Of a DNA stretch of 64,000 nucleotides, positions 12,664-35,895 are shown piece by piece; positions within the stretch are counted from its first letter, which is position 1; the number at the start of each line of letters is the position of its first letter. The position numbers and the translations under genes were made by a program. The DNA is from Candidatus Heimdallarchaeum aukensis (GTDB taxonomy: Archaea > Asgardarchaeota > Heimdallarchaeia > Heimdallarchaeales > Heimdallarchaeaceae). The stretch is taken from positions 1,568,001 through 1,632,000 of the forward strand of contig CP084166.1 in NCBI GenBank assembly GCA_021513695.1, in the 5' to 3' direction. The notes beneath the pieces were generated by a model that was not told the origin of the DNA, did not search any database, and saw only the letters and a program-made list of their open reading frames with translations.

Positions 12664-13022
12664 GGTAATTACTTTATCAAAATAAATTTAAGAATTTGGA
12701 TAGACGGATGAAATTTAAGCAAAGAAAAATTGTACGATAATCGAAGGTTCTGTAAAAATAAAAAATAGGGTATTACACCCTACTTCTTTCTAACTGGTAG
12801 AGGAACTAATGAAGAAACTCTATGCTTATAATCTTTATATGCGCTGTATTTAGAAAGCAGTCTATTCTCCATAAGATACTTTTTTACGTAAAAAACTAAA
12901 TTTTTAGTTTGTGGAGTTATTAGACTAATAACAACCAGAAACACATTTGCATTAATAAAGAATATACAATATTATGGGTGTCACAACTTTTCCGCTGTCT
13001 TTATATATTCAATTATCATTTA

Positions 13023-13210
13023 TCTAGTGTCTTGAGCTAGATGCTTAAAGACGTAGGTTTCATTCCTACGACACCCGGTCTTCCCTGTGGGAGTGATGAG
13101 TGCCCGGGATCAGGAGATGAACCCCTTAGAGAACTCACTTAAGACTGTGTCTTTCATGTTCTCTTAACCCAGTCTTCACAACTTTCGCTATGTTTGTTGA
13201 CTGGTTGGGT
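13023..13210. ncRNA. Candidate structured non-coding RNA (GC-rich multi-hairpin island, class unknown)
   Basis: The intergenic region 12664..13314 has no ORF. It contains 4-5 consecutive stem-loops: tctag/ctaga (13023-13041), cgtagg/cctacg (13052-13070), cccgg/ccggg with nested ttccc/gggag (13074-13108), and cttagagaac/gttctcttaa with nested aagac/gtctt (13125-13167). GUGAUGA and CUGA C/D-box-like words are present. Local GC is well above the genome background. Confidence 0.3.
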
Positions 13211-13314
13211 AGAGTCCTGAAGAAATTACGTAAAATTTCAACTCATAAGAGGGATGCTAATAAATATAAACAGCAGCGAAATAGAGATTGGCCCAATAAT
13301 CATCCACCAATTGC

Positions 13315-18834: not shown

Positions 18835-19452
18835 GTGAGTAAAATGTTTGGAAACTTTATGAGATGGTTATTAGGAACTCAAAAATCAAGTAGAGACCAT
18901 ATAGTAAACCTTAAACTAACTATTCGCAGACTAGAAAGAGCTCAAAGGAAACTGGAGAGAGATGAATCAAGAATACAACTAAAAATGCGAACAGCTATTC
19001 AGCGTGGTGATTTAGAAGGTGCCCGTCTTTATGCTACAGATATTGTTCGTTCTCGTAAGTGGGTTTTAGGTTACCAGCGTTTAGTTTCTCGTATTAATGG
19101 TCTTATTTTTAAACTAGAACGAGCTGATTCTGCTGCTAACTTGGCAGCTGAAATGCATTCTATTGCAGGAGCTCTTCGACAAGCTAACGCTCAATTAAAT
19201 GTTCCTGATTTAGATCATGTTATTCAAGACATGGAACGTAGTATTGATGGAATTGAGGATTCAACTGAAACAATTGAAGATGGAATTGATGATCTTCTTA
19301 TTGCTGATACCGACCCAGCTGAAGTCGATAGGTTAATTGACCAAACAGCTACAGAGATGGGTGTTAGTGTAGGAGGAGAACTCCCTTCAGTAAGCGCTGT
19401 TGCAACAGACGATCTCGAGGAAGAGATTCAAAAATTAAGGAAAAAAGAGTAA
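18835..19452 (+). CDS. ESCRT-III, Vps2/24/46-like (Snf7 family)
   Basis: 205 aa. Basic N-terminal helical hairpin (RRLERAQRKLERDESRIQLKMRTAIQRGDLEGARLYA) and acidic C-terminal half, the CHMP2/3-like pattern. Immediately upstream of a second Snf7 paralog and Vps4. Confidence 0.8.
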   Translation: MSKMFGNFMRWLLGTQKSSRDHIVNLKLTIRRLERAQRKLERDESRIQLKMRTAIQRGDLEGARLYATDIVRSRKWVLGYQRLVSRINGLIFKLERADSAANLAAEMHSIAGALRQANAQLNVPDLDHVIQDMERSIDGIEDSTETIEDGIDDLLIADTDPAEVDRLIDQTATEMGVSVGGELPSVSAVATDDLEEEIQKLRKKE

Positions 19453-20254: not shown

Positions 20255-21400
20255 TTGAGCGCGCAAGGACTGATTGAACACGCACGTAAATTTGCAAAAA
20301 AAGCTTATGAACTTGATAAGGCAAAACAATACAATGAGGCAATACCACTTTATCTCGACGCTGCAGAAGCTCTAATGAAAGCAATAAAATTTGAAAGAAA
20401 TCCACAAGTGGGAAAGACATTAAAGAAAAAAGCAGAGATGTACATTGAACGAGCAAAAGATCTAAAAGAAATTATTGAGAAAAAAGCTGAAAAGGGGGCA
20501 GAAACAGGGTCAGACGAAGAATCTGATAAATTAGAAGGAGCAATTAGCGATATCATAGTTACAGAAAAGCCATCAGTTACTTTGGATGATATTGCAGGAC
20601 TAGAAGAAGCAAAACGGAATCTTCGAGAAGCAATAGTGTTACCTCTTGTAAGACCAGACTTATTTAGTGGTGCAAGAAGACCATGGAAAGGGATTTTACT
20701 TTTTGGCCCCCCAGGATGTGGAAAAACTCTTTTAGCAAAAGCAACAGCTGCAGAAGTAGAAGCTACGTTTTTTAATGTTAGTGCGTCCGCGGTTATATCC
20801 AAATGGTTAGGAGAATCTGAAAAATTAGTTAATACATTATTTAAAATTGCTCGTGAAAGGCAACCAAGTATAATTTTCATAGATGAAGTAGATGCTCTTA
20901 CCGGAGCACGTGGTGGCGAGCATGATGCTATGCGCAGAGTTAAAACTGAATTATTAACTTCTATGGATGGTTTATCTAGCTCTGCTCAAGATCGTCTTGT
21001 AGTTATTGGGGCTACTAACCTTCCTGAGTCTATTGATGGAGCTTTTCGCCGTCGTTTTGAGCGTCGTATTTACATTAAGCTTCCAGATTTTGAAGCGCGT
21101 AAAGCTATCTTTCAACTAAATGTCAAAGGAGTGGACTTAGCTCCCGATGTTGATTTTGAATCTTTAGCAGAGATTACAGAAGGTTATTCTGGAGCAGATA
21201 TTGCTATGGTTTGTCGCGATGCTATTATGACTCCTATTCGTGAACTTGATTTATCAGGAGACATTCATGACCCCAATATTAAAGCCAGACCAGTTACACA
21301 AAAAGATTTTCTTGAGTCTATTCAGTCAGTTAATCCTTCTGTAAGTGCAGAAGAAATCGAGAAATATGAGAAATGGAATGAAGAATTTGGTTCAGCGTAA
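20255..21400 (+). CDS. vps4: Vps4 AAA+ ATPase (MIT domain + AAA module)
   Basis: N-terminal MIT three-helix bundle (AKKAYELDKAKQYNEAIPLYLDAAEALMKA). Walker A GILLFGPPGCGKTLLAKA, Walker B IIFIDEVDAL, second region of homology, and C-terminal Vps4 helix. Confidence 0.95.
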   Translation: MSAQGLIEHARKFAKKAYELDKAKQYNEAIPLYLDAAEALMKAIKFERNPQVGKTLKKKAEMYIERAKDLKEIIEKKAEKGAETGSDEESDKLEGAISDIIVTEKPSVTLDDIAGLEEAKRNLREAIVLPLVRPDLFSGARRPWKGILLFGPPGCGKTLLAKATAAEVEATFFNVSASAVISKWLGESEKLVNTLFKIARERQPSIIFIDEVDALTGARGGEHDAMRRVKTELLTSMDGLSSSAQDRLVVIGATNLPESIDGAFRRRFERRIYIKLPDFEARKAIFQLNVKGVDLAPDVDFESLAEITEGYSGADIAMVCRDAIMTPIRELDLSGDIHDPNIKARPVTQKDFLESIQSVNPSVSAEEIEKYEKWNEEFGSA

Positions 21401-21412
21401 AAGGGTGTTTTT

Positions 21413-21705
21413 ATGATTTACCTTTTTACGTAAGTTTTTCGCACTCGGTCTTTCAAGGGAGAAAACAGGAGTTTCATCACTTGATAACTCAACCACAACA
21501 TACAATGAAAGGAAACGTGGTTAAGACAGACGTCATACACGAATCGTGGGAATCATAAAGAAGGAAAAGAAAAAAGTAAGAAAGGAGAAAAGAAAGGAGG
21601 TTATCTCCTTCTTTATTCTACTTTCTTTTCTTTCCTTCACTCCACGAGAGACGAAAAAACAAACAAATAATCCTCTAACAAGAGAGAATGTAAGTTTATA
21701 TTTTC
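21413..21705 (-). ncRNA. Candidate TnpB omega-RNA (reRNA) scaffold / right-end region
   Basis: Non-coding segment between the tnpB stop and the element terminus. Blocks are conserved with the paralog (e.g. acatacaatgaa...gacagacRtcatacacgaatcgtgggaatcataaagaag and ttccttcactccacgagagac) despite indels elsewhere. Confidence 0.4.
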
Positions 21706-21707
21706 AT

Positions 21708-23161
21708 CTACTGGGGCTGCAACCAATGGCTGAGCCCTTGGCAAACAGTGAAATGAGTGAGACTAAATTTACGACCAGTGAGTAGATCAGTAATAGTTGT
21801 TGCACGGGGGCGGAAAAGAGAACTAAGGAGCAGACGAGCGATATTCATTGCTCCTGTTAGATCAGAGTGGAAGGTGTAATTGCAAGAGGGACAATAAACT
21901 AACCCTCTAACGGGGCGGGTAACTTTTTTTCCGCAACGGGCACAGTGAGATGATGTTCCTCTTTCCTCTATCGTCAGAATTCGGTGAGAGGGAAAACCTC
22001 TAAGTATTAGTGCACGACGGATAAAAGAAAGAACAAGAGCATAGTTCCACTGGTGAAGTTTTCTTCGTGACTTGCGATTAGTTACTCCCTTATTTTTTTC
22101 TCGTCGAATGTATTTAGGATAACCTATAACAACGAAAAGATTATAGATCCGAGCATAAACCTCTATTGTCCACACGATAGCACTTACAAATTGATTGATA
22201 TACGCTCGTCTGACGTTTCTATACCTCCGACGGAGACGTTTGAGAAAACGGTAAACTTGGTGTTTTTTACCCGATTGGTCGTTTAAAGCTGCTTTCCTCT
22301 GAAGACGGGAAAGTTTGAGTTTATATCGATGATTAACTTTATTCCACTGTTTGGTATACTAGAACTTTATTTCTTTACTTGTTACCTTCTTTTTCGGGGT
22401 CAGTAGCACTTCTACCGCAGGAATGTTTATCCCTAGATCTATTCCCAGCACAGCTGGGGGAAGAAAAGAAGAGTCAGAAGAAAGATTATCTCCCTGAAGG
22501 AAAGAAGAAGGAAGAACTTTTGAATGAAAATATATCCACCATTCACGTGTAGAACGTTTGTATCTTATTTCTAAACTTTTTACTCTTTCTTTAATTCTTT
22601 TTGATGAAACTCGCTCATCTCTAAAGGTAACCACAATCGCTGATGAAAACGTGTTTTTCTTTTCCACCTATCTAACGAGTCTCGTATTCCTACCCACCAA
22701 CGAGAAAGAGTGTTATTCTTATCTTTTGGTAGATGGACGAGGATGAACCTTTTTTTATTAATTAATTGTCTTCTTGCTCTCTTTCTTGGAGGACGAGTAT
22801 TGTTAGGTCTATATCCTTGCTCATATAGTTGCACAGCTATATCTCTACATTCTTGAAACTCATCGTGAGAACAATAGGGAAACATTTTCTTCATATCGTG
22901 AGGAACAGTCGTTCTTCTTTCTTCCTCTTTTTTTACTCTCGAGGTCGTTAATGTCAATTCGTCTAATTTTCCTTTATGTACTTTTATTTTCCCTTCTTTT
23001 GCTTTAATACCTATTTTTTTTCTGTTATGGTGTATAATTCTCACATACTTTTCTATTATTCTAGTATCTCTCCCCGTTATTCTCCTTAACTTTTCTTTTT
23101 TTCTCGTCGTCAATACTTCATTCTTCACTCTCACCTTTAACGTTTTGACGACGTCCTCCAT
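21708..23161 (-). pseudogene. tnpB: tnpB pseudogene (frameshifted; fragments 22580-23161, 22359-22667, 21708-22175)
   Basis: Three ORF fragments in different frames together cover the 484-aa intact paralog, from the N-terminus MEDVVKTLKVRVKNEV... to the C-terminus ...HCARCGKKV...CPSCNYTFHSDLTGAMNIA. At least two frameshifts were seen. Confidence 0.75.
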
Positions 23162-23240
23162 CCTTTTTTTCTCCTCTTATTTTACTCTCTCTTTTTTTCT
23201 ATTTTTTTCTCTTCTTTTACTTCTTCTCTTCCTCATTATA

Positions 23241-23260
23241 CTTTTTTTCCCTATAAAAAG
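23241..23260 (-). promoter_or_regulatory. Candidate TATA box for tnpB inside the left end (reads TTTTTATAGGG on the coding strand)
   Basis: The motif ctttttttccctataaaaag is conserved in both paralogous elements (also 34681-34698). A related tttttttcctatataaa lies upstream of the third tnpB (63559-63578). Confidence 0.3.
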
Positions 23261-23329
23261 TCCTTTCTTTTCTTTTTTTCTCATTATTCTTCCTCAATTT
23301 TTATATAAAGTTATGTAAAATAGTAAATC

Positions 23330-24130
23330 ATGGCTACAATGGAAAAACAAAAAGATAATGAATTTGAGCAAATTGATCTTGAAAAATTGAAAGAAGAAAA
23401 GAAAATATCAGAAGATAAGCTTAAGCTTATTGAAGCCAGTATTAAGGGATTAAAAGTTTCAGAAGAAGAACTGAAGTCCACGAAACCTATTGTTAGAGAA
23501 GAAGCAAGATTAGAACTAACAGAAGACACAAAGACGAAGCTAATTAAAGAATTTGAGCAAAGTTTACCTGATTGGGTTAACAAGCCTTGGATGTATGTCA
23601 CCCCAAAAAAGGCAAATCAAGTTGAGTCTTGGTTAGACAGTTGGTCATCAGTCATGCTTGATTATACAAAGAAATTTGTTATTCATATTGTTAATGTCAA
23701 TTCTCTTAGAGAAACTTATCCTTTTTGTAATAAGAAAATAAGAAAAGAACTTACCATCGATCAAATTCGTGATATCATCGATTTTCTTGAAACAAAGGGT
23801 TTTGCTCTTTGGATAAATGATAGGACAAAATTCTTTGAGAAACTTTTTGCAAAGATACTTGGAAAACCTTTAACAAAAAAGATCCGTGCAAAGATAGAAT
23901 GGAAAACAAAAGAAGAATTTGCTGAAGATTTACTTAAATGGATGATTGAAACCGGTAGAGTAGTTGAAGTTCACTCTTTATATGATTTAACAAAATATGA
24001 ACAACCCTGGTCTTCTTTACCTTCAGATGATTTAATCCATGTATGCAATTTACTCGTAGAAAAAGGTTCTGCTAGATGGTTAAATAGAGAAAGAACTATA
24101 ATTTCCTTTGAAGCAACAAAGGTATTCTAA
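23330..24130 (+). CDS. ESCRT-II Vps25-like protein (tandem winged helix) with an N-terminal charged coiled-coil extension
   Basis: PFCNKKIRKELTIDQIRDIIDFLETKGFALWINDRTKFFEKLF matches the Vps25 WH1 pattern (LF.N..I.R.L....I..IL..L...G.AEW). The second WH is GRVVEVHSLYDL...LIHVCNLLVEKGSARWLN. The annotated ATG overlaps the IS terminus; the real start may be the next Met. Confidence 0.65.
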   Translation: MATMEKQKDNEFEQIDLEKLKEEKKISEDKLKLIEASIKGLKVSEEELKSTKPIVREEARLELTEDTKTKLIKEFEQSLPDWVNKPWMYVTPKKANQVESWLDSWSSVMLDYTKKFVIHIVNVNSLRETYPFCNKKIRKELTIDQIRDIIDFLETKGFALWINDRTKFFEKLFAKILGKPLTKKIRAKIEWKTKEEFAEDLLKWMIETGRVVEVHSLYDLTKYEQPWSSLPSDDLIHVCNLLVEKGSARWLNRERTIISFEATKVF

Positions 24131-32867: not shown

Positions 32868-32912
32868 AATAACAAAGAATTACTACATAAAACATAAATG
32901 TTTTCTTTGGAC

Positions 32913-33171
32913 ATGATTTACTTTTTTCCGTAAGTTTTTCGCACTCGGTCTTTCAAGAGAGAAAAACAATAAAATAGCTTAATCGCTTGGTAACTCAACC
33001 TAAACATACAATGAATGGGAGTGGTTGAGACAGACATCATACACGAATCGTGGGAATCATAAAGAAGAAAGGAAGAAAAAAGTAAAACCTTTTTTCTTTT
33101 TTCCTTCACTCCACGAGAGACAAAAAAGAAAGACTAACTCTAACACAAGAGGATAGAATTAGTTTCTTTTC
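32913..33171 (-). ncRNA. Candidate TnpB omega-RNA scaffold / right-end region
   Basis: Conserved with 21413-21705 (see there). Lies 3' of the tnpB stop and runs to the element terminus. Confidence 0.4.
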
Positions 33172-33173
33172 GT

Positions 33174-34628
33174 CTACTGGGGCTGCAACCAATGGCTGAG
33201 CCCTCGGCAAACAGTGAAATGAGTGAGACTGAATTTCTGACCAGTGAGGTAATCAGTAATGGTGTTACATCGAGGACGGAAAAGATATCCAAGGAACTTA
33301 CGAGCGATATTCATTCCCCTTGTTAGATCAGAATGAAAAGTGTAGTTACAGGAAGAACAATGAACTAACCCTCTAACGGGACGGGAAACTTTCCTCCCGC
33401 AACGAGCACAGTGAGAAGATGTCCCTCTTTCCTCTATTGTTAATATTCGGTGAGATTCAAAGCCTCGAAGTATAAGTGCCCGACGGAGAAGAGAGAGAAC
33501 AAGAGAAAAATTCCACTGATGAAGTTTTCTGCGAAACTTACGATTACTTTTTTCTTTTTCTTTTCCTTCTCGAACATGTTTGGGGTAACCTACAACAACG
33601 AAAAGGTCATACACTTGTGCATAACTCTCTATCGTCTGCACAACATCGCTTATAAATTGGTGAATATACGCGCGTTTAACGTTTCTATACCTCCGACGAA
33701 GAAGACCAAGAAAACGGTAAACTTGGTGCTTTTTACCTAACTGGTCGTTTAAAGCTGCTTTCCTCTGAAGACGGGAAAGTTTGAGTTTATATCTATGATT
33801 GATTCTATTCCACTGTTTAGTATACCAGAATTTTATCTCTTTTTTTGTTAACTTCTTTTTAGGAGTCAGTAACACTCCTGCAGCAGGAATGTTTATCCCT
33901 AGATCTATTCCCAGCACAGCTGGGGGAAGAGAAGAAGAATTATCTCCTTGACTTGTGAGATAAAAGGAAGAAGGAGGAAGAACTTTTAATTGGAAATACA
34001 CCCACCATTCACGTGTAGAACGTTTGTATCTTAGTTCTAGACTTTTCACCCTCCCTTTCTTTAACTCTTTCTGGTGAAAATCGCTCATCTCTAAAGGTAA
34101 CCACAACTTCTGATGATAAGGTGTCTTTCTCTTCCAGGTATCTAACGAGTCTCTTATTCCTACCCACCAACGAGTAAGTGTATTATTCTTCTCTTTTGGT
34201 AGATGGACAAGAATGAACCTTTTTCCATTAATTAATTGCCTTCTTGCTCTCTTTATTGGAGGACGAGTAGGACGGGGTCTATACCCTTGTTCATATAATT
34301 GTACAGCTATATCTCTACACTCTTGGAATTCATTGTGAGAACAATAGGGAAACATTTTCTTCAAGTCGTGAGGAACAGTCTTTCTCCTCTCTTCTTCTTT
34401 TACTCTTGAAGTAGTCAGTGTCAACTCGTCTAATTTTCCTCTATGTACTCTTATTTTCCCTTTTTTTGTTCTTATACTTATTTTTCTTCTGTTGTGGTGT
34501 ATAATTCTCACATATTTTTCTATTATTCTCGTGTCTCTCCCCGTTATTCTCCTTAATCTTTCCTTTTTTCTCGTCGTCAATACCTCATTCTTTATTCTCA
34601 CTTTTAATGTTTTGACGACGTCCTCCAT
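33174..34628 (-). CDS. tnpB: TnpB (RuvC-like RNA-guided nuclease family, IS200/IS605 OrfB)
   Basis: RuvC-I LGIDLG, C-terminal zinc finger HCARCGRKV...CSSCNYTF and RuvC-III HSDLTRGMNIA. The canonical RuvC-II glutamate is not evident: the sequence reads LFVVVGYPK where the third TnpB in the window has AIVIEEIS. Confidence 0.85.
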   Translation of the reverse strand: MEDVVKTLKVRIKNEVLTTRKKERLRRITGRDTRIIEKYVRIIHHNRRKISIRTKKGKIRVHRGKLDELTLTTSRVKEEERRKTVPHDLKKMFPYCSHNEFQECRDIAVQLYEQGYRPRPTRPPIKRARRQLINGKRFILVHLPKEKNNTLTRWWVGIRDSLDTWKRKTPYHQKLWLPLEMSDFHQKELKKGRVKSLELRYKRSTREWWVYFQLKVLPPSSFYLTSQGDNSSSLPPAVLGIDLGINIPAAGVLLTPKKKLTKKEIKFWYTKQWNRINHRYKLKLSRLQRKAALNDQLGKKHQVYRFLGLLRRRYRNVKRAYIHQFISDVVQTIESYAQVYDLFVVVGYPKHVREGKEKEKSNRKFRRKLHQWNFSLVLSLLRRALILRGFESHRILTIEERGTSSHCARCGRKVSRPVRGLVHCSSCNYTFHSDLTRGMNIARKFLGYLFRPRCNTITDYLTGQKFSLTHFTVCRGLSHWLQPQ

Positions 34629-34947
34629 CTTTCTTTCCTCTTTTCTTATTCTAAACTTTTTTCTTCTCCTTTAATTATACTTTTTTTCCCTATAAAAATT
34701 CCTCACTTTTTCTTCTCTCCCTCCCTCTTCCTTCCTTCTTTCCTTTCTTTTTTCGTTGCACTCTTCCTCAATTTTTATAAATTTACGTAAAAAAGTAAGT
34801 CATTTATTATGCTTTTCTTTAAAGTTTTTACAGTAAGTGCTGAATGTTTCTATTTCATTTATCCCTGAAAGAGGACAATAGTATAAAAAAGTGTAAAAAA
34901 CAATAATTAAGAAAATATTTATAGTTTAACAAAAATAAAAAACATCA

Positions 34948-35895
34948 ATGTGCTGCAAGATAAAAGAAGTTCATGCAAAAATAAGACAATATATCAACAA
35001 AACTCCAGTGATGACTTCAACTACACTAAATAAACTAACTAAAGCGGAATGCTACTTAAAGTGTGAAAACTTCCAAAAAATGGGTGCATTTAAGATTAGG
35101 GGAGCAGTTAATGCCATACTAAATCTAACTGAAGAACAAAAAAAGAAAGGAGTAATAACGCACAGTTCAGGAAATCATGCTCAGGCCTTATCTCTTGCAG
35201 CTTCTTTTTTTAATGTTAAAGCCACAATTGTTATGCCTGAAAATGCACCAAAGGTTAAAATTGAAGCAACCAGAAATTACGGCGGAGAAGTTATTTTTTG
35301 TGGAAACAAACCCTTGGATAGAGAAAAGAAAACAGAAGAATTAATTAAGCAACACGATTATACATTAATTCATCCTTCAAATAATTGGGACATTATTCGT
35401 GGAGCGGGAACAGCAGCCTATGAATTGATACATGAGATCCAAGATCTAGATTATGTTTTTGCTCCTGTTGGAGGAGGAGGGCTATTAAGTGGAACATCTT
35501 TAGCAGTTAAAGAATTATCACCAAAAACAAAAGTGATTGGTGTTGAACCTGAAAAAGCAGATGATGCTTTTAGATCTATAAGAGACAATAAGATTTACCC
35601 CTCAATTAATCCAGACACAATAGCAGATGGCCTTAGAACTTCATTAGGAAATATTACTTTTTCTGTAATAAGAGACAATGTTGATAAAATCATTTTGGTA
35701 ACAGAAGAAGAAATAGTAAAAGCAATGGAATTTCTGTGGTCTCGTATGAAATTAGTTGTTGAACCCTCTGGTGCTGTTTCATTAGCTGGATTATTAAAAC
35801 AAAAAGAAAGTATAAAAAACAAACGAGTAGGAGCAATCATTTCAGGCGGAAATATTGATTTGACCGATTTCTTTGCAAAATTTAAGGGATTGTAA
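34948..35895 (+). CDS. PLP-dependent serine/threonine dehydratase family enzyme (threonine ammonia-lyase/serine racemase-like)
   Basis: PLP-lysine motif FKIRGA, SGNHAQALS, and glycine loop GGGGLLSG of the tryptophan-synthase-beta-like fold. 315 aa, with no regulatory ACT domain. Confidence 0.8.
   Translation: MCCKIKEVHAKIRQYINKTPVMTSTTLNKLTKAECYLKCENFQKMGAFKIRGAVNAILNLTEEQKKKGVITHSSGNHAQALSLAASFFNVKATIVMPENAPKVKIEATRNYGGEVIFCGNKPLDREKKTEELIKQHDYTLIHPSNNWDIIRGAGTAAYELIHEIQDLDYVFAPVGGGGLLSGTSLAVKELSPKTKVIGVEPEKADDAFRSIRDNKIYPSINPDTIADGLRTSLGNITFSVIRDNVDKIILVTEEEIVKAMEFLWSRMKLVVEPSGAVSLAGLLKQKESIKNKRVGAIISGGNIDLTDFFAKFKGL

Follow-up and report, generated by a model that had tools for sequence, protein, structure and literature searches.

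TnpB genes are normally accompanied by a guide RNA, and the finding of such an RNA beside a tnpB gene is expected and not surprising. In the IS200/IS605 element ISDra2 (8H1J), the omega RNA is located at the 3' end of tnpB, overlaps the end of the ORF and extends as far as the element's right end, and its guide is taken from the flank. In the IS607 TnpB reRNA (ISXfa1; Yoon et al. 2023), a fixed flanking nucleotide is held inside the scaffold and the guide lies just beyond it (PMC10711439). Similarly, Fanzor reRNAs carry the inverted repeat and the duplication in the scaffold, and the guide starts just beyond (PMC10711439). The haloarchaeal sotRNAs are omega RNAs that overlap the 3' end of tnpB in the sense direction (PMC12558985). 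The survey of Altae-Tran et al. 2023 described Asgard-specific groups of TnpBs, TnpBs whose transposon ends are symmetric and solo TnpBs that are mobilised in trans, and also reported a glycine in place of the RuvC-II glutamate (PMC10691335). TnpBs with symmetric ends and rearranged active sites are thus known from that survey.

The locus compared with these systems herein lies in a window of 64,000 nucleotides from Ca. Heimdallarchaeum aukensis, which is the whole stretch of DNA that was analysed. Two copies of one element of about 1.9 kb are found on its minus strand. The conserved tail that follows tnpB, together with the last ~30 nt of the tnpB ORF, very probably encodes the scaffold of a TnpB omega RNA (reRNA). 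The copies, their tnpB genes and their neighbours are positioned in the window as follows.

21413-23331, minus strand: element copy 1, whole, 1919 bp, bounded by terminal inverted repeats (21413-21433, 23311-23331) whose outermost bases are AT (21413-21414, 23330-23331).
32913-34803, minus strand: element copy 2, whole, 1891 bp, with AT at each end and terminal inverted repeats at 32913-32933 and 34783-34803.
21708-23161, minus strand: tnpB of copy 1, a pseudogene.
33174-34628, minus strand: tnpB of copy 2, intact, 484 aa.
20255-21400: vps4, which flanks copy 1 at the 21413 side.
23330-24130: ESCRT-II subunit gene, the other flank of copy 1.
34948-35892: threonine dehydratase gene, whose product has 100% identity to the protein of the Ca. 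H. aukensis genome.

The original prediction, made from the letters of the window, described 260-290 bp between each tnpB stop and the element terminus and read this region as an omega-RNA scaffold. The measured tails are 295 nt (21413-21707) and 261 nt (32913-33173), slightly outside that range in copy 1. The stops are CTA on the plus strand in both copies as described; they had been placed about 3 nt off and are located at 21708-21710 and 33174-33176. Each of the two blocks quoted as shared by the tails is found at exactly two places in the window, against a chance expectation of 0.

21525-21563 and 33029-33067: first block, exact match in both copies.
21632-21652 and 33101-33121: second block, exact match in both copies.

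The element termini were also placed correctly, and homology between the two copies ceases exactly at 21413 and 32913. In Ca. H. endolithica and in metagenomes, another 16 close copies stop at the same base, ...GTAAATCAT. All 18 of the 18 close copies terminate in ...GTAAATCAT / ...AAAAAGTAAATCAT, and the sequences beyond are unrelated flanks. The tnpB gene of copy 1 has decayed: 4 nt were lost in a single deletion, and codon 268 is an in-frame stop; it is otherwise similar to that of copy 2, these two being its only disabling lesions. The suggestion that the tail of copy 1 outlasted its gene was rejected, for the tail is 80.3% identical to that of copy 2 (48 gap columns) and the ORF 84.1%. 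Because ORF identity exceeds tail identity, the still recognisable tail is no proof of preferential retention.

The minus-strand RNAs of the window copies fold with MFE values of -90.9 and -104 kcal/mol and z scores of -5.5 and -5.7, and 0 of 100 shuffles were as good. A covariance model, R1, was built from the close-family alignment. R1 matched copy 1 at 21413-21652 with 185 bits (E 1.3e-36) and copy 2 at 32913-33121 with 196.8 bits (E 5.6e-39), and it also detected a relative with 53% identity (E 3e-7). The right ends of the scaffold at 21413 and 32913 agree with the original prediction; the 5' start does not, as it lies at least 30 nt inside the ORF and not at the stop codon. The RNA is taken to start inside the tnpB gene because the hairpin at the ORF end covaries.

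21413-21737, minus strand: predicted omega RNA/reRNA scaffold of copy 1, from the ORF-end hairpin to the element right end; z -5.68; R1 match 21413-21652.
32913-33203, minus strand: predicted omega RNA/reRNA scaffold of copy 2; z -5.47; R1 match 32913-33121.
21713-21737 in copy 1 and 33179-33203 in copy 2, minus strand: ORF-end hairpin.
21642-21647/21544-21549 in copy 1 and 33111-33116/33048-33053 in copy 2, minus strand: helix P1.
21538-21542/21439-21443 in copy 1 and 33042-33046/32939-32943 in copy 2, minus strand: helix Px.
21528-21531/21448-21451 in copy 1 and 33032-33035/32948-32951 in copy 2, minus strand: helix P3.
21517-21525/21488-21496 in copy 1 and 33023-33029/32994-33000 in copy 2, minus strand: helix P4.
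21477-21483/21454-21460 in copy 1 and 32983-32989/32954-32960 in copy 2, minus strand: helix P5.
33036-33041 and 32944-32947 in copy 2: the two strands of the KAUGAH/NRAG loop.

The ORF-end hairpin is followed by P1, which encloses the variable hairpin P2, and then by a Px-P3 stack that encloses P4 and P5. P2 is longer in copy 1 by a 35-nt insertion. Px and P3 are separated by an asymmetric internal loop, KAUGAH opposite NRAG, which is present in all families. The 3' end of the scaffold consists of ~20 unpaired nt, and its last 21 nt are made up of the terminal inverted repeat and the duplicated AT. A terminal hairpin P6 (GAGU/ACUU), proposed at first, was replaced by the long-range Px, which alone is supported across families. 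Two long-range pairings suggested by RNAalifold, GUUUGC/GUAAAU and GUGGAGU with the 3' tail, were not adopted, as they are invariant and uninformative on covariation.

The internal loop raises another identity for the tail, namely an unrelated small RNA of the C/D-box or another k-turn type, or else a small protein gene. KAUGAH opposite NRAG is loosely like k-turn or C/D motifs; the k-turn reading was rejected, as the non-bulged strand departs from the consensus and the resemblance is loose only. No credible Rfam match supports such an RNA at the gathering threshold or at E up to 10. The protein-coding version starts from mechanical ORFs of 50-79 aa that overlap the tails, so that the absence of ORFs stated for the tails holds only approximately.

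21546-21785, plus strand: mechanical ORF overlapping the tail of copy 1.
32918-33109, minus strand: mechanical ORF overlapping the tail of copy 2.
33140-33292, minus strand: mechanical ORF overlapping the tail of copy 2.

The local indels noted between the copies are real and measure 1, 4, 35, 2 and 6 nt. They break these ORFs from one copy to the other, and the tail ORFs are therefore unconserved. An unrelated small RNA or small protein gene is extremely improbable.

Relatives were also compared. The TnpB homologues number ~170 and are nearly all from Heimdallarchaeia and Thorarchaeia. The complete Ca. H. endolithica genome contributed 14 copies to the set, which also included metagenome copies, a family with 42-43% identity, the 53% relative (L020) and a more distant group with ~33% identity (L029-L050). 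Compensatory changes, which had been proposed as a check on the two copies, were found well beyond them. Within the close family (18 copies, hand-defined structure), 96.7% of cells are in standard pairs; sliding the partners by 1-3 columns lowers the pairing to 44-58%. Six pairs are altered on both sides. The two subfamilies have CUCAACC/GGUUGAG and CUUAAUCC/GGAUUAAG, respectively, as P4, and L017 shows a separate C-G to U-A change. P5 is CAAGAGA/UCUCUUG or CAAGAAA/UUUCUUG, and P2 shows an A-U to G-C change. An uncompensated U-C mismatch in P1 of subfamily B counts against the reading. Because most of the double changes split the two subfamilies, the independent events in the close family are few. 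In the ORF-end hairpin (GGRCUCAGCCAUUGGUUGCAGYCC), the synonymous third position of a Gly codon pairs with the first position of a Pro/Ser codon, as A-U in 8, G-C in 5 and G-U in 2.

The extended alignment A5 adds two more distant members, the 53%-identity relative and a third site in the window at 13078-13246. In A5, 96.2% of cells are paired and 16 of the 36 pairs are changed on both sides; 0 of 500 shuffles attain any of the measures, and slid partners give 44-59%. A5 was fitted to R1, which biases these values in favour of the structure. Among the scaffold pairs, G-U and A-C occur in a ratio of 22:3. This excess of G-U indicates that the strand in the tnpB sense is the structured one. The conservation is a mosaic of invariant blocks between variable loops, with a mean identity of 82% vs 77.5% at third codon positions.

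The same helices were identified across families. P1, Px, P3, P4 and P5 are nested in the same order in six lineages with TnpBs 42-90% identical, as verified by a scripted check, and the helix sequences differ among these lineages. Px occurs as UCGUG/UGCGA, UCCUA/UAGGA, GAGGA/UCCUC, AAGGA/UCCUU and CAGGA/UCCUG. P4 has six versions across the lineages, and its loop retains YUGURU. The joints AUGRKUSCC and KAUGAH ... NRAG are conserved. The match to the 42%-identity family rests on independent folds and a hand-made helix table; the same architecture was obtained from RNAalifold of that family and when L022 and the third window element were each folded on their own. Internally, the 42% family has 2 double changes in 76 pairs, and it is too conserved for its covariation to be informative. 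When R1 was run without filters on this family, the matches were in the correct place and weak (E 0.2-7), and were not counted as detection. A nhmmer search with the close-family alignment reached only relatives of at least 53% amino-acid identity. A match to known omega RNAs, also proposed as a check, was not obtained: no Rfam family, including the haloarchaeal omega-RNA families, matched. Rfam at the gathering threshold gave no omega-RNA match in the whole window, and at E up to 10 on 32880-33300 it gave nothing credible, only miRNA and leader-peptide noise.

These data bear on whether the tail is mere transposon-end DNA, made of the inverted repeat and subterminal sites for a transposase and without RNA function. 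The terminal 21-30 bp are truly repeated at the left end and must serve transposition, and the invariant blocks could in principle be protein-binding sites. However, the repeat covers ~21-30 nt only, and the conserved part covers ~300 nt. Pairing is kept by two-sided changes and by wholly different helix sequences across families, and the G-U bias is strand-specific. None of these features is predicted by DNA-binding sites, and pure transposon-end DNA is considered highly improbable. The omega-RNA reading, on the other hand, is well supported by the fold z scores, the compensatory changes, the cross-family helices and the strand bias; the sharp boundary and the cognate TnpB are also in its favour.

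An unexpected R1 match was found at a third place in the window, in an element that holds no tnpB.

12871-13246, plus strand: third element, 376 bp, no tnpB, MITE-like, with inverted-repeat-like ends ATAAGATACTTTTTTACGTAA ... TTACGTAAAATTTCAACTCAT.
13078-13246, plus strand: R1 match in the third element, 34.4 bits, E 3.9e-5.
13247-13266: would-be guide of the third element, predicted as AAGAGGGAUGCUAAUAAAUA.

The third element has AT on each side (CC|AT...TCAT|A). A remnant of the ORF end is left in it, and its scaffold, which is of a related family, is complete. It resembles a miniature, "guide-only" derivative and would depend on TnpB from elsewhere. A search of the window with the inverted-repeat pattern found no more elements except 12871-13246. 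In H. endolithica, 4 of the 12 full-length copies (L005, L009, L011 and L012) have premature tnpB stops, at codons 36, 39, 116 and 383, and their scaffolds score like those of intact copies with R1 (~210-217 bits).

Such gene-less and gene-dead copies are relevant to the view that the tail acts in cis, within the 3' UTR of the tnpB mRNA, in stability, termination or translational control, and is not a guide RNA. The tail is contiguous with the ORF and overlaps its end. Archaeal omega RNAs are reportedly processed from the tnpB transcript (PMC12558985), so that the two roles are hard to tell apart by sequence alone. A UTR element would not account for a structure that persists with a dead tnpB, in copy 1 and in the four of 12 H. 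endolithica copies, or in an element without any tnpB (12871-13246). The structure also reaches the exact element end, as guide scaffolds do. A role restricted to the 3' UTR is very unlikely, and the guide-RNA reading is followed below.

The ends of the elements were also compared. Both the window family and the 42%-identity family carry terminal inverted repeats, 21-30 bp in length.

Repeat: GATTTACTTTTTWCGTAA.
Ends of the window family: ATGAYTTACYTTTTTWCGTAA ... TTACGKAAAAARGTAARTCAT.
Ends of the 42% family: ATGGTTGTTTTTCCCCACTTTT ... AAAAGTGGGGAAAATAACTCAT.

The empty site of copy 2, found in sister strains (L062-L064), reads GGAC-AT-TTATTATGC, and the occupied site reads GGAC-AT[GATTTAC...GTAAGTC]AT-TTATTATGC. 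For copy 1, the orthologous empty site in H. endolithica is ...GGTGATTAT-AT-GGCTACA. With a single AT in each empty site and an AT to either side of the element in the occupied ones, the insertion adds the element and one AT. Formally, this pattern could also arise if an element ending in CAT inserted 3' of (C)AT; given the inverted repeats, duplication of an AT target appears to be the simpler reading. The target consensus is V-C-AT-R: 12 of 13 left flanks have C at -3, T never occurs at -4 on that side, and all 16 right flanks have a purine at +1. The copy 2 insertion is polymorphic, as metagenome contigs of sister strains, with a neighbour protein 98% identical, have this intergenic region and are without the element. 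The empty copy 2 site in these strains indicates that the family moved recently.

With its inverted repeats and AT duplication, the element is more likely to move by a double-strand mechanism than by the single-strand "peel and paste" of IS200/IS605, and from its ends it is not a classical IS200/IS605. No transposase gene was called beside any of the ~20 relatives inspected, and no serine recombinase, DDE or Cas1 gene was seen near the window family among the relatives inspected.

The guide would start at the element edge when the rule for IS607 and Fanzor (PMC10711439) is applied here. This is just where the original prediction put it, and the boundary at 21413/32913 and the empty sites agree with this position. 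A guide length of 20 nt, the RNA 5' end and its processing are assumed.

21393-21412, minus strand: predicted guide of copy 1, 5'-AAAAACACCCUUUUACGCUG, which covers the vps4 stop codon.
32893-32912, minus strand: predicted guide of copy 2, 5'-GUCCAAAGAAAACAUUUAUG.
Predicted target sequence for the copy 2 TnpB, preceded by the motif positions NNNNNN: GTCCAAAGAAAACATTTATG.

For copy 2, the unoccupied allele of the sister strains (L062-L064) matches the guide over 21 nt, directly after ...AAAT. In the proposed mechanism, the scaffold RNA would be transcribed from the minus strand, in the same sense as tnpB. By analogy with TnpB, IS607 and Fanzor, the transcript would read past the element end into ~16-20 nt of flank, which would act as the guide, and TnpB would bind the scaffold and cut guide-matching DNA beside a short motif. 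The natural substrate would be the unoccupied allele, made of the left flank, AT and the right flank, with the cut beside a motif that ends in AT. Cutting of the empty allele would favour retention or copying of the element. Copy 1 and the 12871-13246 element would be workable only with TnpB from another copy. The right end itself finishes with TCAT, which resembles the left-flank motif V-C-AT and counts against the guide-RNA reading; sparing of this end would need discrimination at -4 or further upstream.

The nuclease itself was examined in copy 2. Its residues include D242 of RuvC-I (DLG), E400, C407xxC410, C424xxC427 and D434 of RuvC-III; D242, E400, D434 and both CxxC pairs do not vary among 19 homologues. 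At the canonical RuvC-II position the glutamate is missing and VVVGYP (residues 344-349) is found, which counts against the guide-RNA reading. E400 lies exactly six residues ahead of the zinc finger (E400-RGTSSH-C407). This alternative-glutamate arrangement has been described for rearranged TnpBs (PMC10691335) and for Fanzors (PMC10711439). We infer that E400 is the alternative ("Ealt") glutamate and that the catalytic set is complete though rearranged; the copy 2 TnpB is apparently competent. Pfam recognised only the zinc-ribbon TNB domain (27.5 bits), and NCBIfam gave a sub-threshold match to RNA-guided TnpB. A profile of the 19 homologues matches Cas12f and TnpB structures. The AlphaFold model (pLDDT 75.5) has a full-length match to Cas12f, ISDra2 TnpB (8h1j) and Fanzor2, with a Foldseek E of 2.9e-11 against 8h1j.

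The locus shares with ISDra2 the overall protein fold and the placement of the RNA described above. It differs from ISDra2 and from IS200/IS605 elements in general in that their ends are asymmetric hairpins without duplication, whereas inverted repeats and an AT duplication are found here. Moreover, the scaffold here is longer (~290-325 nt), the glutamate is the alternative one, and no sequence or Rfam similarity was found. The Y1 (HUH) TnpA gene of IS200/IS605 was not called next to the relatives inspected here. Similarity to IS607 includes a double-strand element, the same dinucleotide on both sides and fixed flank nucleotides in the scaffold. In IS607, however, the dinucleotide is GG and the ends are asymmetric, whereas AT and symmetric ends are found here, and no serine recombinase lies beside the ~20 relatives.

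Fanzor1 and Fanzor2* elements are alike in being non-autonomous, with a nuclease gene only, and in holding inverted repeats and a short duplication within the predicted scaffold. They also have the glutamate six residues before the zinc finger, and the window protein fits D{P}G...ExxxxxxCxxC (PMC10711439). Unlike the eukaryotic Fanzors with DPG at RuvC-I, the window protein is from an archaeon and has DLG, and no specific sequence or fold affinity to Fanzor over Cas12f or TnpB was found. The scaffold resembles the IS607 and Fanzor reRNAs more than that of ISDra2, as its last 21 nt are the inverted repeat and AT. The sotRNAs (RF02656, RF02657) are likewise archaeal and sense-overlapping at the 3' end of tnpB; in contrast to them, the scaffold here has no match to these families at E up to 10.

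Asgard TnpBs associated with DDE (IS630) or aCas1 were also compared. The reported motif GTTCACTCA of the aCas1-associated Asgard TnpBs is absent beside the window family. It is borne by the relatives with ~33% identical TnpBs (L029-L050), ~430 nt past the end of the protein match. A second GTTCACTCA upstream in L036, L037 and L049 is part of an adjacent element, so that the elements stand in tandem there. The duplication of IS630 is typically TA. The window family differs from the DDE (IS630)-associated TnpBs in its AT duplication, and no DDE or Cas1 gene was seen nearby.

The element type could be a new variant, though the chance is modest. It is conceivable, though doubtful, that the Heimdallarchaeial elements are an archaeal counterpart of the Fanzor cut-and-paste transposons, with the nuclease as their sole gene, inverted repeats, a 2-bp duplication, an alternative-glutamate TnpB, a guide RNA whose scaffold takes in the repeat and the duplication, and guide-only miniatures that borrow the nuclease in trans. 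If this combination is undescribed and active, a Fanzor-style partnership between a nuclease and a double-strand transposon would already be present in the closest archaeal relatives of eukaryotes. For an Asgard-specific TnpB family, the outcome is an omega-RNA model that specifies the helices and the boundaries, proposes three guides and suggests target motifs. Compared with the original prediction, the covariation, the true extent of the RNA, the element ends with the AT duplication, the type of active site and the third, gene-less scaffold are added. The model accounts for the ~300 nt of conserved "non-coding" sequence after dozens of Heimdallarchaeaceae genes annotated as "IS605 OrfB / zinc ribbon", and also for gene-less orphan copies. 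The polymorphic copy 2 insertion supplies natural occupied and empty alleles, a substrate pair for RNA-guided homing in an Asgard archaeon.

Two minor observations were made elsewhere. A borderline Rfam match to the C/D-box family SNORD36 was found at 19239-19313 on the plus strand (31.9 bits, gathering score 30; E 0.38). The matched stretch is part of the mechanical ORF 18835-19452, and the match is probably due to chance.

Copy 1 is inserted between vps4 and the ESCRT-II gene, right on the ESCRT-II start codon. In H. endolithica (L058 3440-3540), the distance from vps4 to the ESCRT-II gene is 12 nt, and GAGGTG precedes the ATG. In the window, the terminal AT of the element and a G together restore the ATG (region 23300-23332), and the ribosome-binding site, displaced by copy 1, is now 1.9 kb off. 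The ESCRT-II gene is intact and has 96% identity to its H. endolithica orthologue. A palindromic TATA-like sequence, TTTATATAAA, is located at 23300-23309, 30 nt upstream, and might promote a leaderless ESCRT-II mRNA.
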